Shown: positions 29,893 through 48,545, numbered from the stretch's first letter. The stretch is DNA of 64,000 nucleotides from a virus (IMGVR_UViG_2840949845_000002:1-64000), one strand, 5' to 3'. The notes: a model not told the origin generated them from the sequence alone. Program-made: numbers and translations.

Positions 29893-32238
29893 ATGATGGG
29901 AAGTATTGTTGGTTCTGTCTGGCGTGAACTTCGGGACCACCGGCGCAAAAACAAAGATATTATGGCGCTTTCTAGTGGATTTGGCTATAATGTATGCCGC
30001 CTATTCACCAACAAAAATTGGGTAGTACTGCCAATTAATTTCATGCTTTATACTATTATTTCTTGCATTGCTTCAGTCTATATACCGCTTTCTCTGGAGG
30101 AGTCACAGGCTGGAACCGTCAAGGACATTGCCAGCTACATAATTTCCGCGCAGGTAACTTTGGTTGCACTTGCGATCCCAGTCATTATAGCCGGTGCTCA
30201 ATTGCTGCTGAGCGCGCGGTCGGTCAAAGGGCGTGAATTCGATCTTGCTATTTTGCTTGATATTGGCAGGCCGCGTGAGATCACATCAAGCTCTCTTTTG
30301 CTCACTGCCGTGATGTTTTCTCTATTTTCATGGCCGCATGAAATCATCGCTGGTCCGATGCTAAGTGGTGCTCGTCCATATATTCTCGCTATTGCGGGGA
30401 TCTGGTTTCTGGCTAACTTGGCTGGTTATGTGCATTTCATCCATACCGCCCTTGATCTGGTCTCAAACGAGGGCCGCATCCGGCTGCGCAAGAGGGCAAT
30501 TGCTTGGTTCGGATTCGATGAGGAAATAGGCGACAATCGTCTTAGGGACCTCTGGTATGAGTTCCGCCAGGAACTTGAAGCGAGTGGTCTCGCCGGGACC
30601 TGGACCGTCGGGTGGGTGCCTCCCCTTAACGAGTCGTGGTTCGGATTTGCGCGCGCAGGTCGGATAAACGACGTCCGAACGACGGTTTTACGGATCGCGC
30701 TGCGCTGGCTTCGCTTCCGTAACGGTGACAAATCGACGGTGGTGGGGATTGCCTTTTATTTAGGGAGTGACTGCAAGTCTGGCCAACATTTCCTCGTAGA
30801 CAAGCGCCCGGATTTAATTGGTAGAATCTTACTGCGTTCATCCTTGAAAATCGGCGGGAGGGCGTCGTTTGGAAAGTCACGCTTTCGCCCAAGCGCGTTG
30901 CTGGAGGCTCTTGGGTCAGACGTGGAACATCAAATTCTTACTGGGACCCCTGCGGACGCTGATGCGGCGTTCAGCGAATTATTGGATATGCTGCATGTAC
31001 TGTTGCGGGCGTCGATGACCACGAATGGAAACTATGCAACGAAAAATCCGATGATGTCATTGCTGAGGAATTGGGTTGATCCGGTCCATTCCTTAAGTTG
31101 GGTCGCGGCAGGCGCTCTGCAAAAATCACCGGAATTTGCCTCTAACATCGCGGTGAAGCTGGCTCAAGCTTGTCGGCACGCGGTTACGGATAGATTCCCC
31201 CCTGAGATTGTTCGCGTCTTCGCGGAGGCGATAGGATTGCTGCTGTATCGCGTCTCTCGCCGCTCACATGAAGAAGGAAAAATTGAATCAATCGCACACC
31301 GCGAGTTCGTGAAACGGGGGGAGTGGGCGCTTGGATACCCACTGAACGCACTTTACCACGGGGCTGAATTTGACGATCCGTGGCGGGCTTTTCAACAGAG
31401 CGCCGAGACTCGGCTAATATTTGTTGGATTTCTGGCTTCCAACGTGAGCTATGTCGCATGGGTTAATGATTTGTACGCAGCAAGAAGCTATTTAACAGTA
31501 TTTGCAAATTATTCTAAAGATATTGATGCATCACGAGCGCCAATCGAATGGCGACGCATGCCCGATGATTTGTGGAAAAAGGACAGGGCGGAGGCCCGCA
31601 CTATTTTGAGTGAATATGGCTCTGAGGACACGGCCATGGCTAATTGGCGGCGACAGGTATTGATAGATCGCTTGTTGCTGGCGCAGTTGGTTTGGGCGCA
31701 ATGGATCGCTGAAGGCGCGCGCACGGATGATGAGTGGATAAAGCTCGTAACACGTCTTTCCAAAATTATTCGAGGTGATAAATATAGTATTTTTCGATAT
31801 TTTCTCTCATTCGGTCATATCTTTCGCCGCTTCGTCGCTATGTGTGAAACAACCGACCAAGACGATCACGAGACTATCAATGAATTTGTGAGCAGTATCG
31901 ACCGTGTGCGTGATTCCGATAAAGAGGGATTTTTTTATAGTGATGCTGTTCATCGAATAAAGGACCTTGTGCCTGGGTTAATCATACATGCCCTTGTCAC
32001 CTTCGACGCGCAAGGGATGCAAGGAGCTGTGAACGAAATCACGGAGGCCAAAAACTCTGGTATGATTGACGGCCAGAAAGCAAAAGAAATTTTCGATAGT
32101 CTTCATAGCATTTCTTGCGATCTGCCGAAGGGGATCGTGGAAACGCTCAGCCCACATTTCTCCGATTGGACGGAGCGACTCGCGGCGCTTCAAGTATCTC
32201 TTCTTGCATGTAGAAGGATTTTTGACAGTGATCGTTGA
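29893..32238 (+). CDS. Large hypothetical membrane protein (N-terminal ~4 TM), AT-rich moron
   Basis: 781-aa ORF on the strand opposite the flanking phage genes; visibly lower GC. Confidence 0.8.
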   Translation: MMGSIVGSVWRELRDHRRKNKDIMALSSGFGYNVCRLFTNKNWVVLPINFMLYTIISCIASVYIPLSLEESQAGTVKDIASYIISAQVTLVALAIPVIIAGAQLLLSARSVKGREFDLAILLDIGRPREITSSSLLLTAVMFSLFSWPHEIIAGPMLSGARPYILAIAGIWFLANLAGYVHFIHTALDLVSNEGRIRLRKRAIAWFGFDEEIGDNRLRDLWYEFRQELEASGLAGTWTVGWVPPLNESWFGFARAGRINDVRTTVLRIALRWLRFRNGDKSTVVGIAFYLGSDCKSGQHFLVDKRPDLIGRILLRSSLKIGGRASFGKSRFRPSALLEALGSDVEHQILTGTPADADAAFSELLDMLHVLLRASMTTNGNYATKNPMMSLLRNWVDPVHSLSWVAAGALQKSPEFASNIAVKLAQACRHAVTDRFPPEIVRVFAEAIGLLLYRVSRRSHEEGKIESIAHREFVKRGEWALGYPLNALYHGAEFDDPWRAFQQSAETRLIFVGFLASNVSYVAWVNDLYAARSYLTVFANYSKDIDASRAPIEWRRMPDDLWKKDRAEARTILSEYGSEDTAMANWRRQVLIDRLLLAQLVWAQWIAEGARTDDEWIKLVTRLSKIIRGDKYSIFRYFLSFGHIFRRFVAMCETTDQDDHETINEFVSSIDRVRDSDKEGFFYSDAVHRIKDLVPGLIIHALVTFDAQGMQGAVNEITEAKNSGMIDGQKAKEIFDSLHSISCDLPKGIVETLSPHFSDWTERLAALQVSLLACRRIFDSDR

Positions 32239-32439
32239 TGGAGTCACAGGGAACGGCAACGTTGGGGCATAGACCGTCAATTTTGGGGTGATTCGGTCTG
32301 TCAGCCCCCTACAGGCAACAACTGTCCACCAAAACCGGATGGGTTCGTCCAATCGTCGGGACAAGAGTGCTTCAGCGGCCTCTACCGTGGGCTGGCGGTG
32401 GGATGGTCGCCGCGCCCACGGTTGGGGGTGGTGGGGTGG

Positions 32440-33252
32440 TTATTCGGTTTCTCGGTCGGGGCGGAAGGCCTTTTGCATCGCGATGGTGGCGTCGAGGATG
32501 CGCAGGCCGATGGTTCGGTCGATTTCTCTGGCGACCAGGGTGCGCATGGTCTTGATGACGCGCAGGTCGGAATTGGTCAGGGGGCTGGACAGCAGGGGGT
32601 TGGGGTCCAGGTCGGTGTCGATGCCGCGACGCCAGAAATCCGCCGCCTTGCACGCGGCGCAGAAAGGCGGGTTGCGGGTTTCGGGGATTGAGTTCGCGCC
32701 GATCGGCGGCGTCAGCAGCGCGCGCAGCCGGATCTGGTCGTCGCGTCCCAAGCTGCGGTAGGCCATGACCATCGATTCTTCCTCGGGCGCCAGCGTGCCG
32801 GGCAATCCGGTGGTTCTGGCGCCGGTCGCGGCGTCGAACACTTCGACCATCTGGATCGTCACCAACGCGGAGCGTTCGGTGTCCGACTTCGCCGTGATGT
32901 AGAGCGCTTGCTTTTTGGTGAGGTGGAAGGCGCCTTTGCTCGGGCGTCCACGTCGGCGGGGAAACTCCGCCGTGCGGCGGAGTTTCCGATCAGCGTCGGA
33001 AATAGGTTCATCTGGAGTGTGCGGCGCCTGCCGCGAACTGCGATTTTCCGGGACATCCCGGAAAACCTCTCCGAAGGTCATGAGCGCGGCCATGTGGCGT
33101 TCGATCAACCGACGAATATCATGAGGGTCCACCATCCCCAACGCTTCGGCAAGCCGGAGGTCGCGGATGCGCGGCTCGTGATTGATCGTGGTGTCGATGT
33201 CGGTCGGTGATAACGCGGGCAAGGCTTGCCCGTTGTCGCCCATGATGTTCAT
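32440..33252 (-). CDS. Antirepressor-like protein (copy 1)
   Basis: EPRIRDLRLAEALG...RGRPSK..HLTKKQALYI; preceded by a C4-like leader. Confidence 0.7.
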   Translation of the reverse strand: MNIMGDNGQALPALSPTDIDTTINHEPRIRDLRLAEALGMVDPHDIRRLIERHMAALMTFGEVFRDVPENRSSRQAPHTPDEPISDADRKLRRTAEFPRRRGRPSKGAFHLTKKQALYITAKSDTERSALVTIQMVEVFDAATGARTTGLPGTLAPEEESMVMAYRSLGRDDQIRLRALLTPPIGANSIPETRNPPFCAACKAADFWRRGIDTDLDPNPLLSSPLTNSDLRVIKTMRTLVAREIDRTIGLRILDATIAMQKAFRPDRETE

Positions 33253-33311
33253 GGCGATGGCCTCCTGTGCGGCATTGCCGACGGAGGGCTGCTTTCTAGG
33301 ACAACCCTGGC

Positions 33312-33386
33312 GCCGGGGGCTAGAAACCTGTCACAGGTCAGGCCGGACTATTCCCCTTGCGGGTCTTGTATTATCCGACCCCCGGC
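33312..33386 (-). ncRNA. C4 antisense RNA (copy 1)
   Basis: CCGGGGG...CCCCCGG closing stem, CCCGCAAGGG hairpin, loops CCTGTGA/GGTTTCTAG complementary to flanking targets. Confidence 0.75.
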
Positions 33387-33490
33387 AAAGGGGTATGCAC
33401 CGGACGGACTCCGGGCACGAAAATGGCCGCATCGCGAAAAACGCGCGGACGGCCTGCCGCCTGTAAGGAGGTTTCTAAGCTCCGGGGCGA

Positions 33491-33519
33491 AGAATGGCTC
33501 CGCTGGGCGGCAGGGTCAA
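33491..33519 (-). promoter_or_regulatory. sigma70-type promoter of the C4/antirepressor operon 1
   Basis: TTGACC-17bp-CATTCT. Confidence 0.5.
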
Positions 33520-33762
33520 GGGCGTCCCGTCAACGCGGCGTGGACTCGCGTGTATTTCTGTGAAAGAACGCAACCAATCTTTCCGGTCCTTGCACCTGGG
33601 CCAGTCGGACCGACGCGGCGAGTCAGCGCTGCGCCGGCTGGGCAACTGTCGCCCTCTGATACGGTCGCGCAACGCGGAGAAGGGGCCACCGGCGGCCGGA
33701 AAGACCATCGTTCGCGTGGCGATGGGGTGATCGCGACACCCCGCCGCGATTGCGCGCCCGGC

Positions 33763-34533
33763 TCATGCCCCCAGCGAGGCGTTGTGCAGGGCGATGACGT
33801 GACGAACGATGTCGGCGGCGGCGGGATCATGGGGCACCACCACCAGCAGCGTCAGCGCCGTGCCGGTTCCCCAATCGACCAGGATGGCCCCCGGATCGCT
33901 GGCGGCGTTGGACCAGGGGCGGTTGATCGCCGCCTGGACGCCAACCGGCTTGGGCGGCTCCACGCTGGGCGGCGGCGGCGACTCGGCGTCGATGAGCGGC
34001 GGCGGCAGGGCGGGACCGTCCGCGTTCGGCCAGATCGCGGCGCCGGTTGGCCGCTGGGGCGGCGGTTCGGCCCCGGAAAACAGATCGGCCGGACGCGGCC
34101 CGGCAGCCGGTTCAGGCTTGGGCGCCTTGAACGCCTCCACCTCCGCGCGGGTCACGTCGGGGCGGATCACGCCCTGCGCGACCGCCTCCTCGCGCACCTC
34201 CTCAGGCAGGGTGGCTATGACGTAGAGCGTGCTGTAGGCCTCCGGCAACTGGTCCAGCGGCACCTTCCCCGCATCGACGAATTCCGCCACCTCGCGCAGC
34301 TTGCGCGCGGTGGACGGGCCGAACGGCAGGTCGGCCTGCACCATCGCCTCATACTCGCCGTGGGGCAGAGCGGCTTTCGCCTCGTTCAGCCGTCGGCCCA
34401 CCTGCACGGTGGATTCCAGGGCGTTGGTCCATTCGCGGCGGATGTCGGCCACGAACTCCGCGCGGCTGGTCAGCGCGCGCGGCGCGTTCAGCATCGAAAG
34501 CCGGGTGTTCCCCAAACGGCGGGCGTTGGTCAT
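33763..34533 (-). CDS. DUF3102-like domain protein
   Basis: VGRRLNEAKAALPHGEY...STLYVIATLP. Confidence 0.7.
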   Translation of the reverse strand: MTNARRLGNTRLSMLNAPRALTSRAEFVADIRREWTNALESTVQVGRRLNEAKAALPHGEYEAMVQADLPFGPSTARKLREVAEFVDAGKVPLDQLPEAYSTLYVIATLPEEVREEAVAQGVIRPDVTRAEVEAFKAPKPEPAAGPRPADLFSGAEPPPQRPTGAAIWPNADGPALPPPLIDAESPPPPSVEPPKPVGVQAAINRPWSNAASDPGAILVDWGTGTALTLLVVVPHDPAAADIVRHVIALHNASLGA

Positions 34534-34534
34534 G

Positions 34535-35155
34535 TCAGATCCCCATCTCTTCGGCCAAATAGGCCCACAGGTCGCGGAACAAGGGGCCGGTGCGGGTTCC
34601 GGCGATCTCCGCCGTTCCCAGCCCGGCGGTGAAGCTGCGCGGCACCTCCTGAAGCTGGGGGATCATGACCGGGGCCAGAGTCCCCATCCTCCCCACGATC
34701 TCCCGCGCGTCCACGGTCTCGCGCAGGCGCGGCTGGATCTGGCTCAACAGCAACCGAATCGGGCGACGCCGGGCGCGCAGATAGGGGAGCATCGCGTCCA
34801 TGCTGACCAGATCCTCCGGGCCGGGGCGCACGGGGGCCAGCACCAGATCGGCGGAGTCGAACAGGATCGCCGTCGGGCCGGGGAAGACCTCAATCGCCGT
34901 CGGCGTGTCGATCACCAGCAGATCCAGCCCGTCGGGCGTCGGGGCGCGGTCGATCGCCGACAACAATCGGTGTTCATGCGCGATCACCACCGCGTCGCCG
35001 GGCCGCTGGCCATGCCAGAAGGTCAGCGACCCTTGCGGATCCGTGTCCAGAGTTCCCACCCGCAGCCCTGCCACCGCCGCCGCCACCGCCAGATTCCGCG
35101 CCGTCGCCGTTTTCGGCCCGCCGCCCTTGCCCTGAACCACCAGGATGGTTTTCAT
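34535..35155 (-). CDS. parA: ParA family ATPase
   Basis: KGGGPKT deviant Walker A, LDTDPQGSL, LVIDTP. Confidence 0.85.
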   Translation of the reverse strand: MKTILVVQGKGGGPKTATARNLAVAAAVAGLRVGTLDTDPQGSLTFWHGQRPGDAVVIAHEHRLLSAIDRAPTPDGLDLLVIDTPTAIEVFPGPTAILFDSADLVLAPVRPGPEDLVSMDAMLPYLRARRRPIRLLLSQIQPRLRETVDAREIVGRMGTLAPVMIPQLQEVPRSFTAGLGTAEIAGTRTGPLFRDLWAYLAEEMGI

Positions 35156-35279
35156 CGCCGCGCCCCCCGCCGGAAACCGTTCACCGGGGAACGATTCCCC
35201 GCCCCCACCGGGCGCGCGCCGTCGCGCGTCCGGCCCATTGATCCATCGAATGGCATCTCTCGCGCTCCAAAGGCTGGAA

Positions 35280-36065
35280 TCAGTGGGACGTGAAGTGCGG
35301 AGCGCCCGCGCGCCATTGCGTGGTCTTGACCGACAGGATTTCGCCGATCTGGTCGCGCACATCCGCCTTGCCGGTGACGTCCCACAATTCCGCCATCACC
35401 CGGTTGATCTCGACCATCAACTCCGTCGCCCGTTCCAACGCGATCTGGACGTCCACCGGCAGAGCCAGAAAGCCGGGCGCCCAGGTCGGCGGGGAGAGTC
35501 TCGACCGGATTTGCGGCCGCGCCGTCAGTTGGGGACGGCGCCGCCCCCCTTGGATGACGGGTTGGATCGGCTGGCCCCGCCGCAGCGCGTCGAGGGCGGC
35601 GCCGGTCAGCGTGTTGCGGACCCGCGTTTCCTCCAGCGCGGCGGCCATGCGGGCGCGCTCGTCGATCCGATCCAGGTCGGCCTTGGTCAGCGCCGGGACG
35701 GGCGGCGGCGACGCCCGACCGCTGGTCACGGTGTCGAACACCTCGACGATCTGGATCGTGATCTCGGTCGCCCGTTCCGTCTCGGCCTTGGTCGCGATGT
35801 AGATCGCCTGTTTCTTCGTCAGCCAGAATTCGGCGGCGGGGCGCCCGCGTCCGGGATTTTTCCGCACGGTGCGGAAAATTCCGCCAAGCCGCTCCAGCGC
35901 CTCTCGGTGGCGCTCAATCAGCGGGCGGATATCAGCGGAACGCTTGAAACCCAGCGCTTCGGCCAAGCGCAGATCCAGAATGCGCGGCTCGCCGTTGATG
36001 GTGGTGTCGATGTCGGACTGTGATAATCCGGGCAAAGCTTGCCCGTTGTCGCCCATGCTGTTCAT
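35280..36065 (-). CDS. Antirepressor-like protein (copy 2, paralog of 32440-33252)
   Basis: Near-identical N-terminus MN.MGDNGQALP.LS..DIDTTIN.EPRI.DLRLAEALG. Confidence 0.7.
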   Translation of the reverse strand: MNSMGDNGQALPGLSQSDIDTTINGEPRILDLRLAEALGFKRSADIRPLIERHREALERLGGIFRTVRKNPGRGRPAAEFWLTKKQAIYIATKAETERATEITIQIVEVFDTVTSGRASPPPVPALTKADLDRIDERARMAAALEETRVRNTLTGAALDALRRGQPIQPVIQGGRRRPQLTARPQIRSRLSPPTWAPGFLALPVDVQIALERATELMVEINRVMAELWDVTGKADVRDQIGEILSVKTTQWRAGAPHFTSH

Positions 36066-36124
36066 GGCGATAGCCCCCTTGTCGGCATTGCCGGCGGAGG
36101 GCCGCTTGTCACGACGACCCTGGC

Positions 36125-36199
36125 GCCGGGGGCTGACAACCTGACAAGGACAGGCCGGACTATTTCCCTTGCGGGTGTTGCATTCATCCGTCCCCCGGC
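36125..36199 (-). ncRNA. C4 antisense RNA (copy 2)
   Basis: Same fold as copy 1; loops CCTTGTCA/GGTTGTCAG match their own flanking targets. Confidence 0.75.
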
Positions 36200-36430
36200 A
36201 TAGGGGCATGCGCCGGACAGAATCCGGGCATGAAAATAGCCGCATCGCGAAAAAACGCGCGGGCGGCTTGCCGCCTTGTCATGGAGTTGTCAGGCTCCGG
36301 GGGGAAGAGTCGCTCCGTTGGGTGGGCCGCGTCAAGGGGCGCAGTGTTGCATTTTCCGCGAACGGTGCGCGGAAATTCCGGCAAACCGTTCCAAATCTCC
36401 TGCTGCAGTATTTACACGAGAAAAGCGCTT

Positions 36431-38656
36431 TCAAAGACGAACAGGAATATCAATAACCGGCGCAAGTTGCTCAAGTGTAGTTCTGTAACGGCGCACCACC
36501 TGATCGTAGATGTCTGGCACTCGTGGAGCTTTTACAGTTACGATAAGTGCATACCTCAGCTTTTCGGCGGGCCTAAAATCTTGTCCGCCTGCTCGAGCGT
36601 TATAGTGGATATCAAAAACAGGATCTTTCAAGCTCTTTCCTCGGAATGACTGGGTATGATGCAAACAGTTATCCCACTTGTGTGCGTCGCGACGTAGTTC
36701 ATCCTCAGTGGCATAGAGCTTGCCCTGCTTAAAGAAGCTTGTTGTTTTAGGGTGTATGGATTCCCCATCAATCTTATCTTTATTTGGTCGGAATAATACC
36801 TCAAGTCCTGCTCTTGTATAGTTGCTTGGGTGATGTGGATCTACAGTGGATGCGTAGCAAATCGTTGCTGATATCTCAACCATTCCACTTAATTGATCGG
36901 CTGGGACAGGAATTTGAGCTCTGATGTATTTGGATGCGCTTATTTCACCCTGGTAAACAACCCGAACCACGCCGGGAGCGCACACAACAATTTCCTCAAG
37001 ATCCCGAGCTACGCGTCCCCAGCCAACTTCCGTACGTGGATAGCCGCTCGGGGTGCTCGTATGAACAAGCAGTGCATTGATCGCCAACCCTCGGAGAGAA
37101 TCGCCAAAGTGAGCCCTGATGCCCATCCCCATGCGCATTGTGTCTGGAGCGGCAAAGCTTGTCCCACCGGTCGGCATGAGTGTTGGGACTGAGCCAGGCC
37201 CCAGCACCAGATAGGGCTCGGCTATAGAACCACCGAAGCTGACGAGCGAGGGCTTGACTCGACCAGGGCTTCTTCCTGGACCTATTGAACTGTAGGGTGC
37301 CCTTTTCCATGCAGAACTGCGAGAATCAGCAGCGCCAATTGATAATGCATTGACACAATCAGCTGGAACTTGAATGCGGTTGTAACCGTTATCCGCGTCG
37401 CGCTCTCCTCCATTTCCTACCGCGATAGTCGCCAGGGTTTCACCATCTGATAGGTATTCATCAAGAACTGCTGTCCACGCGTGGATCTCATCATCCTCGA
37501 CTGGCAACTCTGGGCCGATACTAAAGTTGATAAAATCATAACGCTTACTTGCGAGTGCATCTTGAATACGCTGCAATGTTTCATAAAGCTCCAACGGATT
37601 TTGGTTCAGATCTCCGTCAAGAACTCTGTAGTGATCAACTCGTGCATACGGAAGGGGTAAAGGAAGTCCAGGCGTAATATGGCCGAAAAGAGCTGCCGAT
37701 GTCACATTAAGCCCGTGCTCAAGATAGTCGTCTTCAGCTGGACCAATGCCACTCGGTTCGATAGCTGTTGCCCAAGCAGAAACTGGATGATCATGAGGCA
37801 GTCCACCATCAAAGATGGCCGCCTTGATAGAAGGATCAATAGGCGGTCCTTTGGGCAATGCAATTGACGGCGTAGATGGGATTGACGACGAACGGAAAGG
37901 TGGTCGTAACAGCCGAAGCTTTGGCATTTCTCTAACCGCCCGAACAAAGCTATAGGCTGCTAGATATTCTGCTTGCTTGCGAGAAGCGCTGACAGGGACA
38001 AAGCTCACGCCCGACGATGTGATTCTATGATCAAGGTCTGGCTTAAATCCTAACCCGTGAACGTAATCAACAAAACCCTCTAGGACGAAAGAATCGACCA
38101 TTGATCCGCCACCATGCAGGGCCACTTCAAAGACAATTTCTTCCGATTCCGATGTAATACTCTTCAGTTTTTCGGCAGGTTCTGGTGCCGACAACTGTTC
38201 GATGGCGGTTAGTTCGTCAGCTCCCGACGATCCAGCCCACCAATCCGGGATTGACGTCGACCAGTCACGAAACGCTCGTCGAGATCCCGCGACGAAGAGC
38301 TCCGTCGTAAGAGCTTCCTCCGGTTCCCGGCCCTTGCTGCGCGCTGCTGGGAGTATTCTACGAGGACGACTTCCAACGGCTCGAAGGCCGACCGCTGTCA
38401 AGAGCTTGCCGGGAAAATAAGATTTCGCAATGTATTCTGGATGCAAGGTCATCCGCATAACAGCATGATCATGCGGACAAGCTTTCTCTGGTAGCGCATC
38501 AAGGCTCCTAACCGCTGCCGATAACATTGGCGTAAGGCGCGACTGCGCTTGAAAGAACGTGTATGGGGCCTGTTTATCAGGATTTCCTGTGCGAACGATT
38601 ACTGGCTCCGTTAATCGCTCACCCTTGCCCAGCAGAAAGTTTCTCTTGTTCGACAT
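36431..38656 (-). CDS. S8 family serine peptidase, IetS-like
   Basis: DGG, HG, GNGG, GTSFAAP catalytic motifs; AT-rich; directly downstream of an AAA ATPase. Confidence 0.88.
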   Translation of the reverse strand: MSNKRNFLLGKGERLTEPVIVRTGNPDKQAPYTFFQAQSRLTPMLSAAVRSLDALPEKACPHDHAVMRMTLHPEYIAKSYFPGKLLTAVGLRAVGSRPRRILPAARSKGREPEEALTTELFVAGSRRAFRDWSTSIPDWWAGSSGADELTAIEQLSAPEPAEKLKSITSESEEIVFEVALHGGGSMVDSFVLEGFVDYVHGLGFKPDLDHRITSSGVSFVPVSASRKQAEYLAAYSFVRAVREMPKLRLLRPPFRSSSIPSTPSIALPKGPPIDPSIKAAIFDGGLPHDHPVSAWATAIEPSGIGPAEDDYLEHGLNVTSAALFGHITPGLPLPLPYARVDHYRVLDGDLNQNPLELYETLQRIQDALASKRYDFINFSIGPELPVEDDEIHAWTAVLDEYLSDGETLATIAVGNGGERDADNGYNRIQVPADCVNALSIGAADSRSSAWKRAPYSSIGPGRSPGRVKPSLVSFGGSIAEPYLVLGPGSVPTLMPTGGTSFAAPDTMRMGMGIRAHFGDSLRGLAINALLVHTSTPSGYPRTEVGWGRVARDLEEIVVCAPGVVRVVYQGEISASKYIRAQIPVPADQLSGMVEISATICYASTVDPHHPSNYTRAGLEVLFRPNKDKIDGESIHPKTTSFFKQGKLYATEDELRRDAHKWDNCLHHTQSFRGKSLKDPVFDIHYNARAGGQDFRPAEKLRYALIVTVKAPRVPDIYDQVVRRYRTTLEQLAPVIDIPVRL

Positions 38657-38659
38657 GTT

Positions 38660-39778
38660 TTAATCCTCAAATTTATCATGCGTTCTGCATGCGTTCCTGA
38701 TGGTATCTCTGCTGATCCCCGTAAGCTCAGACACTTGCCGTTGTGATAAGATATCTCCAAGAACCATTTCTGAAGCAATTGCCAGTCTATTAGGTTTGTC
38801 GATTTCCATTATTCGTTCTCGGAGAATTTGTTGCAGATGAATTGATAGAGGTTGCTCACTTAGCGCTGCTGCCCTTCTGGCCGCATTTACCCGTCTCTCT
38901 ACGTCACTGAAAGACAGCCCATGGAAAACTATAGACATCGCTCGCACCCAATGATTTGACTTTTCAACGTGCTCAGTTAATAGGGCGTCGAGAAGAGCCT
39001 GAAGACCAGATATATCTGGCATCGGAAAATCAACCACAATTTCAAATCGACGCCAAACGGCAGGATCTAGCAATCCAGCATGATTTGTTGCTGCAATTAG
39101 CAAACCTGTTGGCGGCCAGTCATCAATTTCTTGAAGAAGAACAGTTACAAGACGCTTTAGCTCTCCAATTTCACTTCCATCATCCCGTCTTTTTGCAATT
39201 GCATCCAGTTCATCCAAAAGAAGAACGCAATCTATTTTCTTTGCATAATCAAGAACGTTGCGGATGTTGTTCCCTGTGCGCCCCAGGTAACTACTCATTA
39301 CAGCGGCCAGATCAAGAACAAGCAGCGGCCGCCCCATTTCATGAGCAAGCCAGCGGGCTGATAGCGTTTTTCCCACACCCGGAGGGCCTGTGAAAAGCAC
39401 GGTACGTGTTGGGTTGAGCCCCACAGCGGCAAGGCGGTCGGAATTGAGACGCTCAAGCATTAATTGGCTCAATCGCTCCTTGATCTGAGGGGCAAGAACC
39501 GGCGGATGATCAATGCCTGTGACCGTCTCTACTCGGAGAAGCTCCAGTCGAGAGTCCACATCGACTGGGAGAGGTTGCTCTGCCTGCCGACGGAGAGGGG
39601 AGGACCTCGTCGGCGCCTCGCGCAACAGCGATGTTAAGCCATCCCCGAGTTCAGGAACCTGTTGCCCGTACTTCTTTGCAGCACGATGGATGAAGAGTTG
39701 CACATCCTGCTGGCGCCCTGAGAGCGCCAAGCGGGAAAGGCGGACGAAATCAGACGAAATTTCCTTTTGGAAGTCCAC
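38660..39778 (-). CDS. AAA+ ATPase, IetA-like
   Basis: GPPGVGKT, LLLDELDAI, AATNH..LDPAVWRRF; start uncertain. Confidence 0.88.
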   Translation of the reverse strand: MDFQKEISSDFVRLSRLALSGRQQDVQLFIHRAAKKYGQQVPELGDGLTSLLREAPTRSSPLRRQAEQPLPVDVDSRLELLRVETVTGIDHPPVLAPQIKERLSQLMLERLNSDRLAAVGLNPTRTVLFTGPPGVGKTLSARWLAHEMGRPLLVLDLAAVMSSYLGRTGNNIRNVLDYAKKIDCVLLLDELDAIAKRRDDGSEIGELKRLVTVLLQEIDDWPPTGLLIAATNHAGLLDPAVWRRFEIVVDFPMPDISGLQALLDALLTEHVEKSNHWVRAMSIVFHGLSFSDVERRVNAARRAAALSEQPLSIHLQQILRERIMEIDKPNRLAIASEMVLGDILSQRQVSELTGISRDTIRNACRTHDKFED

Positions 39779-39932
39779 TTCACACCGGCATATGAGGAAA
39801 ACAGGAACGAAATGAGTATGGCGGGATGGACTAAAATTCGCAACATGTTTTGGTATGTCGTCCATTTCACCGGGCGATGCCGCGCGGTGCGCGGCGGCAC
39901 GTCCAGATCCAGCCCAAGCTGCGCCGCGCCCC

Positions 39933-40184
39933 TCACGGCCCGCCCTCATCGCGCCGGTCCACCGGCGTCGTCAACCGCATCTCGCCCAGCGCCTGGGCCG
40001 CGAATCGCTTCACCTCGCTGCTGAAGGTGTAGCCGGGGGTCTGGCCGACATGGCCCGGCGGCGCGCAGGACGGGCGCAGGAAATCCCACAGCACGAACAC
40101 CCGGTCGCATCGCAAAACCCGGCGGATGCTGTCGGGGAAGCGATAGACGCCGTTTTCCCAAATATCATCAGGGCTTAGGGGCAT
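39933..40184 (-). CDS. Hypothetical phage protein
   Basis: 83-aa ORF directly downstream of the replication gene. Confidence 0.5.
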   Translation of the reverse strand: MPLSPDDIWENGVYRFPDSIRRVLRCDRVFVLWDFLRPSCAPPGHVGQTPGYTFSSEVKRFAAQALGEMRLTTPVDRRDEGGP

Positions 40185-47996: not shown

Positions 47997-48545
47997 TCAA
48001 GCCCGGCGTTTGCTCGATGCGGGATCGGCGGCGGCGGCGCGGAGTTCCTGGCGAAGGGCGGCGGTGACTTCGCCGACCTCGGTCAAGCGGTCGTCGGGAT
48101 CGGTCACTGTGGCGACGATCCGATCATGCTCCTTCGCCGCCCGCTCCGTTGCTTGATGGATGGCTATCGAGACGCCCATCTCCTTGTAGATCAACAAAAT
48201 CTTCTCGGTTAGCCGCCCCATCAACCGGGCGTCAGTTGCGGGCGCAAACGTCTCGGCTGTGGCGGTCGGCGCAGTTGACGCAGCAGCGGCGTCGCCGGGC
48301 CGCATCGAGCCGTTTCCGGTCGCCAACCAGTCGAGTGAGATGCCGCAGACCTGAGCGGCAGCGACTATTCCGGACCAGCCAGGGTCGGACGCACCAGACA
48401 GCCACTTTTTTACACCAGACAGGGAGGCACCCGTCGCCTTCGCCAACTCCTCCTGCGTCAAACGCCCCTTCATAGCCAGTCGGAGGCGGTCGCCGAAAGC
48501 TTTCCGGTTCGAGCCAAGATCCGTAAAGCGATGATCGTTATCCAT
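47997..48545 (-). CDS. XRE-family repressor (Mu c-like)
   Basis: FGDRLR...TQEELAKATGAS...SLDWLATG; divergent from ner. Confidence 0.85.
   Translation of the reverse strand: MDNDHRFTDLGSNRKAFGDRLRLAMKGRLTQEELAKATGASLSGVKKWLSGASDPGWSGIVAAAQVCGISLDWLATGNGSMRPGDAAAASTAPTATAETFAPATDARLMGRLTEKILLIYKEMGVSIAIHQATERAAKEHDRIVATVTDPDDRLTEVGEVTAALRQELRAAAADPASSKRRA

Follow-up and report, generated by a model that had tools for sequence, protein, structure and literature searches.

Can one prophage hold two leader-encoded RNAs of the kind known from phage P1, each of which would act only on its own gene? This question is raised by the stretch IMGVR_UViG_2840949845_000002:1-64000 (the window, 64,000 nt in full), where two cassettes on the minus strand of a prophage each combine a leader, a small RNA and a gene for a Rha/Ant-like protein (ORF 1 and ORF 2; ORF, open reading frame). 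To our knowledge, there is essentially one studied example of phage immunity through c4-type RNA, the P1/P7 pair. Our analysis makes it likely that the two cassettes are orthogonal translational repressors of the P1 c4 type which control the Rha/Ant-like genes. The original prediction for this locus had described both RNAs as c4-type. The P1 immI layout, the covariation and the predicted cognate pairing agree with that description, while the Rfam family of the RNAs turned out to be sRNA-Xcc1 and not C4.

The Two Leaders Differ in Matching Words

The look-alike leaders of ~400 nt are found at 33519-33240 and 36335-36053. An alignment of 33560-33100 with 36375-35915 (minus strand), which includes the leaders and the first ~60 codons, gave a mean column identity of 87% over 478 columns, and blastn of the two copies gave 82.9% identity over 391 nt, confirming the predicted duplication of leader and N-terminus. 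Each RNA contains a word in a hairpin loop (L) and a word in a junction (J), and the leader holds complements of both words upstream (J*1 and L*1) and downstream (J*2 and L*2) of the RNA (Table 1). The twelve words quoted in the original prediction were all found at their minus-strand places; its a' and b' labels were swapped relative to P1, where b' names the word in the hairpin loop and a' the one in the junction. In both cassettes, 8 nt separate the L*2 word, which overlaps the Shine-Dalgarno (SD) sequence, from the AUG of the Rha/Ant-like gene (at 33252 and 36065, respectively).

The differences between the two copies are concentrated in the six words. From the -35 box into the ORF, 20 of the 50 word columns differ, compared to 48 of the 333 other columns (one-sided Fisher test, p = 5e-5), and the same is seen for the non-coding columns alone (20/50 versus 30/225, p = 4e-5). 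The window copies differ by at least three letters per word. In copy 2, the L and J words have the core UUGUCAG in common, and each target could therefore pair with either word.

Covariation and Predicted Cognate Pairing of the Words

Sixteen cassettes of the genus were aligned, 15 of which have complete leaders (alignment A2). The remaining cassette, L029, was left out of A2, of the duplex energies and of the covariation counts because its upstream half is missing. Unprompted, RNAalifold returned for A2 a long-range helix that pairs J*1/L*1 with J/L and contains many compensatory pairs, including columns 9-169 (CG in 7, GC in 4 and AU in 3 sequences) and columns 24-157 (CG in 6, UA in 5, AU in 2 and GC in 1). 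For the upstream pairs, 86.9% of 236 cells were paired compared to 70.2 ± 1.7% after shuffling (reached in 0/500 shuffles), and 44 cells were changed on both sides compared to 15.0 (0/500); partners slid out of register were paired in 26.3-54.4%. The downstream pairs behaved alike, with 86.7% of 210 cells paired compared to 67.5 ± 2.0% (0/500), 46 cells changed on both sides compared to 16.0 ± 3.1 (0/500), and 37.6-53.8% pairing of slid partners.

Duplex energies were calculated for the 15 cassettes as an alignment-free test. Mean energies of cognate and non-cognate combinations were -8.9 and -3.7 kcal/mol for L-L*1, -11.9 and -6.5 kcal/mol for J-J*1, -12.5 and -5.7 kcal/mol for L-L*2, and -7.2 and -3.2 kcal/mol for J-J*2; the cognate mean was reached in 0/10000 permutations for each of the four interactions. 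For the two window cassettes, the downstream sums were -17.8 and -19.5 kcal/mol for the cognate combinations versus -5.7 and -6.9 kcal/mol for the crossed ones, and the upstream sums -21.1 and -23.6 versus -7.0 and -9.5 kcal/mol. The covariation counts, the RNAalifold helix and these energies together support the compensatory changes at all three places that had been proposed for this locus.

All 15 aligned cassettes have a unique combination of L and J, and single words recur in differing combinations. In the genome from which the window derives, four RNAs of this type are present (c1 to c4); c1 and c4, which are in different prophages, have J in common and differ in L. When the whole genome was searched for bipartite targets, the four RNAs matched only their own cassettes, apart from one extra match each for c2 and c3, which gives 2-3 targets per RNA versus a mean of 2.65 for shuffled words, which beyond the own cassettes is chance level.

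The words were also analyzed in RNAs of the same family from viral contigs. Sixty unique RNAs could be parsed from 104 matches, the others being dropped for short flanks, an unparsed outer stem or duplication. An exact 6-mer complement of L was present downstream in 51/60 and upstream in 47/60 (non-cognate rates 0.16 and 0.17), and one of J in 42/60 and 37/60 (0.17 and 0.11). This word test replaced a duplex test of long segments from 83 unique viral RNAs, in which the cognate partner was favored on average (0/5000 permutations) and ranked first in 14/83 upstream and 1/83 downstream, a result that is confounded by base composition.

The P1/P7 pair shows the same kind of divergence. The records AF234172 (P1) and AF503408 (P7) differ by two letters per word in the six words, which accounts for 12 of their 19 differing columns, and a review describes the two phages as heteroimmune through c4, which acts in trans (PMC12197685). 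The two window copies have diverged further than P1 and P7. As the L and J words of the two window RNAs differ and the targets have changed to match, each RNA should lock its own gene only, which would give two separately addressed channels.

RNA Family and Comparison With P1

At the gathering threshold of Rfam, exactly two RNA genes were recognized in the 64-kb window, and both belong to sRNA-Xcc1 (RF02221), a family outside Rfam's C4 clan. RNA 1 (33386-33304) scored 70.3 bits and RNA 2 (36199-36117) 55.0 bits, with a gathering score of 53; each is 83 nt long and covers the full model (1-87). P1 was recognized by the C4 model with 68.8 bits and by the c4-a1b1 model with 51 bits. The sRNA-Xcc1 family was found in at least 102 stretches of viral contigs, and 16 of 20 sampled viral loci were sRNA-Xcc1 in an Rfam check.

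In the Rfam structure and in single-sequence folds, the L word is in the loop of hairpin 2 and the J word in a single-stranded junction, as in P1; the single-sequence fold of RNA 2 reproduces the Rfam structure. A closed outer stem followed by RCCA is present in 15/15 aligned cassettes (GCCA in both window RNAs). Such a tRNA-like shape with outer stem and RCCA is the RNase P substrate feature of P1 C4, and the P1 RNA is cut by RNase P.

Northern blots and mapping of its ends showed the founding member of the family, sRNA-Xcc1 of Xanthomonas campestris, to be a discrete species of about 88-100 nt (PMC2996969), and the literature searched treats it as a trans-acting, virulence-linked small RNA with many predicted targets. 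Both window RNAs pass its model and are alike in size (~83-88 nt). A preprint on APSE places one sRNA-Xcc1 copy upstream of an ORF6N gene and, in the passage concerned, draws no mechanism from it. No link of sRNA-Xcc1 to the c4 mechanism was found in the parts of the literature searched, which lay outside subscription journals.

In the immI region of P1, the promoters are followed by a1, which lies in a hairpin loop, and by b1; then come a hairpin and its U run, the C4 RNA of 77 nt, a2, b2 on the SD, and the AUG of icd. The window cassettes likewise encode the RNA in the leader, on the same strand as the controlled gene. As in P1, the RNA has one word in a hairpin loop and the other in the junction that precedes the closing stem; a pair of complementary words flanks the RNA on either side, with the order kept, and the upstream pair is followed by a hairpin with a U run. 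In P1 and here, the loop word pairs with the SD-proximal target, and the P1/P7 variants, like the cassettes analyzed here, show compensatory changes at all three places. Spacing is similar as well. The gap between the upstream words is 7 nt in P1, 3 nt in copy 1 and 4 nt in copy 2, and the distance from the second upstream word to the 5' end of the RNA is 66 nt in P1 and 73 nt in copy 1. From the 3' end of the RNA to the first downstream word there are 3 nt in P1 and 4 nt in both copies, the downstream words are 22 nt apart in P1 and copy 1 and 21 nt apart in copy 2, and the SD-overlapping word (b2 in P1) lies 10 nt before the icd AUG, compared to 8 nt before the AUG in both copies.

Unlike in P1, where this hairpin is short and has a UUCG loop, the first hairpin is long and carries the conserved sRNA-Xcc1 core AAUACAA...ACCCGCAAGGGG. 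Also unlike P1, the prophage has two cassettes instead of one, and no repressor operator was identified at the promoter-like site.

At the -35 position, TTGAC is conserved in 14/16 aligned cassettes. A consensus promoter scan flagged neither of the two sites, and we call them promoter-like because TTGAC is conserved at that place. The stem of the terminator-like hairpin is kept by compensatory changes (columns 37-59 are GC in 8 and AU in 5 sequences).

Doubled Cassettes in the Genus and Elsewhere

Among 69 genomes of the genus, the RNA was found in 18, and four of these 18 contain same-strand pairs within 7 kb. Five pairs were identified (two in G000, which includes the window, and one each in G014, G065 and G070), with members 2.8-7.0 kb apart. 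The two words differ between the partners in all five pairs, and four of the five are ordered as a Rha2-type cassette, ParA, DUF3102, cargo of variable length, and a Rha1-type cassette. A block with both cassettes is syntenic in three other genomes, and in G014 the block of methylase, integrase and cassette 2 is syntenic. This conservation of gene order supports the view that both window cassettes belong to one putative element.

The other two of the four RNAs in the window's genome are at C1:375834 and 382729, 6.9 kb apart. This second pair (L005:5700-13700; G000:C1:375700-383700) encloses other cargo, without ParA or DUF3102, comprising a 1115-aa protein with a weak HNH-like match and a 327-aa protein. 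Close to it, at L005:15250-15373 (G000:C1:385249-385372), a DNA methyltransferase ORF is preceded by an orphan upstream half, in which a degenerate -35 box is followed by J*1, L*1 and the terminator-like hairpin. The words of this half are chimeric, with J*1 of the copy-2 type and L*1 of the type found in cassette c4, and the piece resembles a scar left by recombination. In L029 (G014:C1:804753-804835), the cassette without an upstream half, the junction word mismatches its downstream target and the loop word still matches, and this cassette is probably decaying.

Multiple copies also occur outside the genus. A 2.0-Mb genome of another family (L135; G050:C1:747000-756000) contains a tandem cassette array, with three sRNA-Xcc1 matches ~1 kb apart and four pieces of Rha-like proteins at a spacing of also ~1 kb. 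Two IMG/VR contigs (L070 and L116) each carry two sRNA-Xcc1 RNAs, 534 nt and 243 nt apart, which differ in loop and junction words, and five tandem sRNA-Xcc1 copies with ~380-nt spacing are reported for Xylella Temecula1 (PMC12189769). In MH160767.1 (Escherichia phage vB_EcoM-Ro157c2YLVW), which is P1-like, two places match the P1 c4 leader, which may make this phage another natural example of c4 doubling.

The Rha/Ant-Like Proteins and the Prophage Setting

ORF 1 and ORF 2 are 37% identical overall and nearly identical over the first ~59 residues. ORF 2 matches PHROG 63 ('anti-repressor Ant', E = 2.8e-9) and PHROG 518 ('Rha-like', E = 1.4e-5), and PHROG 63 also matches both ORFs of the second paired locus. 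Homologs are mostly unnamed proteins of Azospirillum species and metagenomes, many of which have PF09669. In a PDB sequence search the best E-value was 0.88, and the best BFVD rows of a Foldseek search (E = 0.011-0.2) are KilA-N, Bro-N, 'antirepressor' and 'regulatory protein' entries. The homology is weak, and an antirepressor function of the two proteins is a plausible prediction. Codons 8-12 of both Rha-like ORFs (33217-33231 and 36030-36044, minus strand) contain a small hairpin made up of GGGCA, 5 nt and UGCCC. In the aligned cassettes of the genus, this hairpin persists despite letter changes in its loop, and it may be part of the regulated structure.

Phage genes for a lysozyme, a Mu-type baseplate, a lambda-type portal and terminase gpA are located at 1.9-23.6 kb of the window. 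The window also encodes two integrases, a CI-like repressor (47997-48545) and, further to the right, homologs of ParB_N and Mu gp27; no tRNA genes were found in it. Between the cassettes, a gene for a ParA-like ATPase and a DUF3102 gene follow on the same strand, and a terminator scan detected no terminator-like site between ORF 2, parA and DUF3102. The gating of parA and DUF3102 named in the original prediction is a conjecture. A blastn search of 32300-36400 against the phage collection gave no match.

A gene pair of ~52% G+C at 36431-39949 (minus strand) adjoins cassette 2 upstream and matches the Iet anti-phage defense system, with IetS (S8 peptidase, 741 aa) at E = 5.4e-39 and IetA (AAA ATPase, 429 aa) at E = 2.5e-82; the pair is absent in the three syntenic loci examined. 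An island of 50% G+C that adjoins cassette 1 on its downstream side holds a 781-aa ORF (29893-32238, plus strand) which has no match in Pfam, PHROG or PADLOC and may be further cargo.

Table 1. Features of the two cassettes and of the genes between them (window positions; words are written 5' to 3' on the minus strand).
Feature	Position	Strand	Details
Cassette 1, promoter-like site	33491..33519	minus	TTGACC 33519-33514, 17-nt spacer, CAUUCU 33496-33491
Cassette 1, upstream pair	33478-33470 and 33466-33460	minus	J*1 UUAGAAACC 33478-33470, in GGAG/CUCC hairpin loop (centroid fold); L*1 UUACAGG 33466-33460
Cassette 1, terminator-like hairpin	33419..33454	minus	Followed by AUUUUC; consensus and single-sequence folds
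RNA 1	33304..33386	minus	L CCUGUGA 33337-33331; J GGUUUCUAG 33328-33320; outer stem, then GCCA
Cassette 1, downstream words	33253..33299	minus	J*2 CUAGAAAG 33299-33292; anti-SD CCCUCC 33288-33283; L*2 with SD CACAGGAGG 33269-33261
Rha-like ORF 1	32440..33252	minus	270 aa; Pfam Phage_pRha 20.8 bits (below cut-off 29.9)
DUF3102 protein	33763..34533	minus	256 aa; start overlaps parA stop; Pfam DUF3102 36.6 bits (cut-off 24.4)
ParA-like ATPase	34535..35155	minus	206 aa; 124 nt after ORF 2; Pfam CbiA E 1.1e-10; PHROG 164 E 2.9e-26
Cassette 2, promoter-like site	36306..36335	minus	TTGACG 36335-36330; candidate -10 GACUCU 36311-36306
Cassette 2, upstream pair	36274..36293	minus	J*1 CUGACAAC 36293-36286; L*1 UGACAAGG 36281-36274
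Cassette 2, terminator-like hairpin	36232..36268	minus	Followed by AUUUUC; terminator scan flags 36259-36241
RNA 2	36117..36199	minus	L CCUUGUCA 36149-36142; J GGUUGUCAG 36141-36133; outer stem, then GCCA
Cassette 2, downstream words	36066..36112	minus	J*2 GUGACAAG 36112-36105; anti-SD CCCUCC 36101-36096; L*2 with SD GACAAGGGGG 36083-36074
Rha/Ant-like ORF 2	35280..36065	minus	261 aa; Pfam Phage_pRha 27.4 bits (below cut-off 29.9)

Proposed Mechanism and Alternatives

In the mechanism that we favor, transcription would start at the promoter-like site and yield a transcript with J*1 and L*1, the terminator-like hairpin, the tRNA-shaped RNA of ~80 nt, J*2, and L*2 on the SD. The RNA would be cut from this transcript and accumulate in the lysogen, where its L and J words would pair in trans with L*2 and J*2 on any transcript bearing the same words. 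The duplex would block the ribosome and silence the Rha/Ant-like gene, possibly together with the downstream genes by polarity. Such a block of ribosomes by the RNA is what the geometry of the leader and the analogy with P1 lead one to expect for the Rha-like gene.

A number of findings weigh against this reading. The Rfam models C4 (RF01695) and c4-a1b1 (RF03163), with which the original prediction was to be checked, have no match in 32000-37000 at E <= 10, as is the case for isrK (RF01394), and C4 has no match in the whole genome at E <= 1. The folding energies of the RNAs are unremarkable (z-scores of -1.30 and -0.76, with 20 and 44 of 200 shuffled sequences folding at least as stably). In neither cassette is there an icd-like ORF between the RNA and the Rha-like gene, and the RNA target therefore lies directly on the SD of the Rha-like gene itself. 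Two coarser measures of covariation show no excess for the downstream pairs, namely 8 pairs with change on both sides (reached in 187/500 shuffles) and 20 further pair types (61/500), and for the upstream pairs the same measures were reached by 37 and 138 of 500 shuffles; moreover, kinship by itself can exceed shuffles, and the structure under test came from the very sequences on which it was tested. The Pfam Rha matches of both ORFs are below the cut-off, ORF 1 has no PHROG match at 1e-3, NCBIfam gave no match for the four Rha-like proteins, and Foldseek found nothing at E <= 0.001 in PDB and BFVD with an AF2 (AlphaFold 2) model (mean predicted local distance difference test score, pLDDT, of 80.6). 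Furthermore, the SD is paired in most of the 15 leaders with an anti-SD stretch of the CCUCC or CCUUCC type just 3' of J*2, and opening it costs 7.5 kcal/mol in copy 1 and 3.1 kcal/mol in copy 2. Summed over the four words, opening costs amount to 19.4 (copy 1) and 17.6 kcal/mol (copy 2), which about cancels the duplex energies, and binding may therefore need co-transcriptional timing or a chaperone. Nested full-length co-folds did not favor cognate partners, with values of 0.0 for c1 RNA on the c1 leader, -4.6 for c2 RNA on the c2 leader and -10.4 for c1 RNA on the c2 leader; we set them aside because the method cannot represent kissing between loop and target.

The masked SD, the opening costs, the null co-folds and the ordinary z-scores make activation of the IsrK kind a live rival, and likewise a switch that acts in cis only. 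In the former, the SD would be silenced by the anti-SD stretch, and the small RNA, or a short transcript with J*1 and L*1, would open this hairpin and switch the Rha-like gene on. The layout has a precedent in Gifsy-1, where IsrK, followed by a terminator, is a leader RNA of the read-through mRNA with the antirepressor gene anrP; in trans, IsrK activates translation of that mRNA and controls anrP (PMC4825925). The pairing of the SD in most leaders and its opening cost are what this alternative would predict, and the terminator-like hairpin of the window cassettes is at a place equivalent to the P1 segment with a1b1 and terminator (48230-48311; L136:3230-3311), which the isrK model matches with 35.1 bits, below its cut-off of 50. 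This match points to the upstream target RNA of c4-type cassettes as the counterpart of IsrK. However, IsrK activates through a small upstream ORF according to the description in PMC4825925, and its model finds nothing at the window cassettes. L*2 covers the 5' half of the SD in the geometry of P1 b2, which AF234172 annotates as 'repression of icd ant translation', and pairing this close to the start codon (8 nt before the AUG) should obstruct the ribosome. We therefore consider activation unlikely. A cis-only switch, in which L and J would alternate between the upstream and downstream targets of one transcript and confer no trans immunity, we judge improbable. In its favor, RNAalifold's consensus for the complete leader joins J*1/L*1 to J/L within one molecule, the three word sets always travel together, and exact bipartite targets are found genome-wide only in the own cassettes, beyond chance-level matches. 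Against it stand the closed outer stem with RCCA, a shape like that of an RNase P substrate, and the word diversification, including that in 5/5 pairs, which is more easily explained by selection against cross-talk in trans. A discrete founding member of the family (PMC2996969) and a P1 c4 that is described as trans-acting (PMC12197685) likewise speak for an RNA that leaves its transcript.

The three-site layout also resembles that of P4, where the processed leader RNA CI pairs with seqA and seqC, upstream and downstream of itself, and terminates transcription of the replication genes prematurely, a likeness drawn from the description in PMC4825925 only. Pairing with the nascent words could accordingly cause premature termination, at a hairpin or by Rho, ahead of the Rha-like gene and of parA-DUF3102. 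The conserved hairpin with UUUUC directly after L*1 and the run of genes from ORF 2 to DUF3102 free of terminator-like sites would fit. Yet the U tract has only four U, and placing L*2 on the SD would be needless for pure termination; as the sole mechanism this is very improbable, though compatible with translational repression as an added layer. That copy 2 is a decaying, functionless paralog with words that differ by drift has next to no probability. Its score is close to the gathering score, and decayed copies are known from L029 and the orphan half of L005, but drift would not alter six words in step, both ORFs are intact and the doubled layout is kept in three other genomes.

Beyond translational repression by two orthogonal RNAs, a broader picture can be drawn, which is doubtful on present evidence. 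In it, the prophages of this lineage would run a combinatorial address code of two RNA words, in which ~4 letters of the loop word and ~3 of the junction word vary, with two locks per phage on two different Rha/Ant-like genes, one of the locks heading the conserved parA-DUF3102 module. The four differing word pairs in two co-resident prophages and the 15 unique pairs in the genus imply that cross-talk would be avoided. The upstream pair and terminator would give rise to an IsrK-like decoy RNA that titrates the lock, making the cassette a three-RNA threshold device; a short decoy RNA of this kind is suggested by the conserved terminator-like hairpin and the sub-threshold isrK match on the P1 leader.

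Significance

The RNA family and the c4 mechanism are already known. What is new is that two cassettes with different addresses are conserved as a pair within a single prophage, and that the words form a combinatorial repertoire. The 'immunity' and 'independent' channels of the original prediction are predictions only. The doubling provides a natural 2x2 test of specificity, or a 4x4 test with the second prophage.

If the favored reading is true, the widespread sRNA-Xcc1 family would be explained as self-targeting locks, and the words would form a natural library of short orthogonal addresses whose rules can be read from covariation, useful for RNA regulators that do not cross-talk. One temperate phage could then hold two independently keyed locks, which would be relevant to the diversification of superinfection immunity types and to the ways in which prophages in the same host evade or make use of one another's antirepressors.

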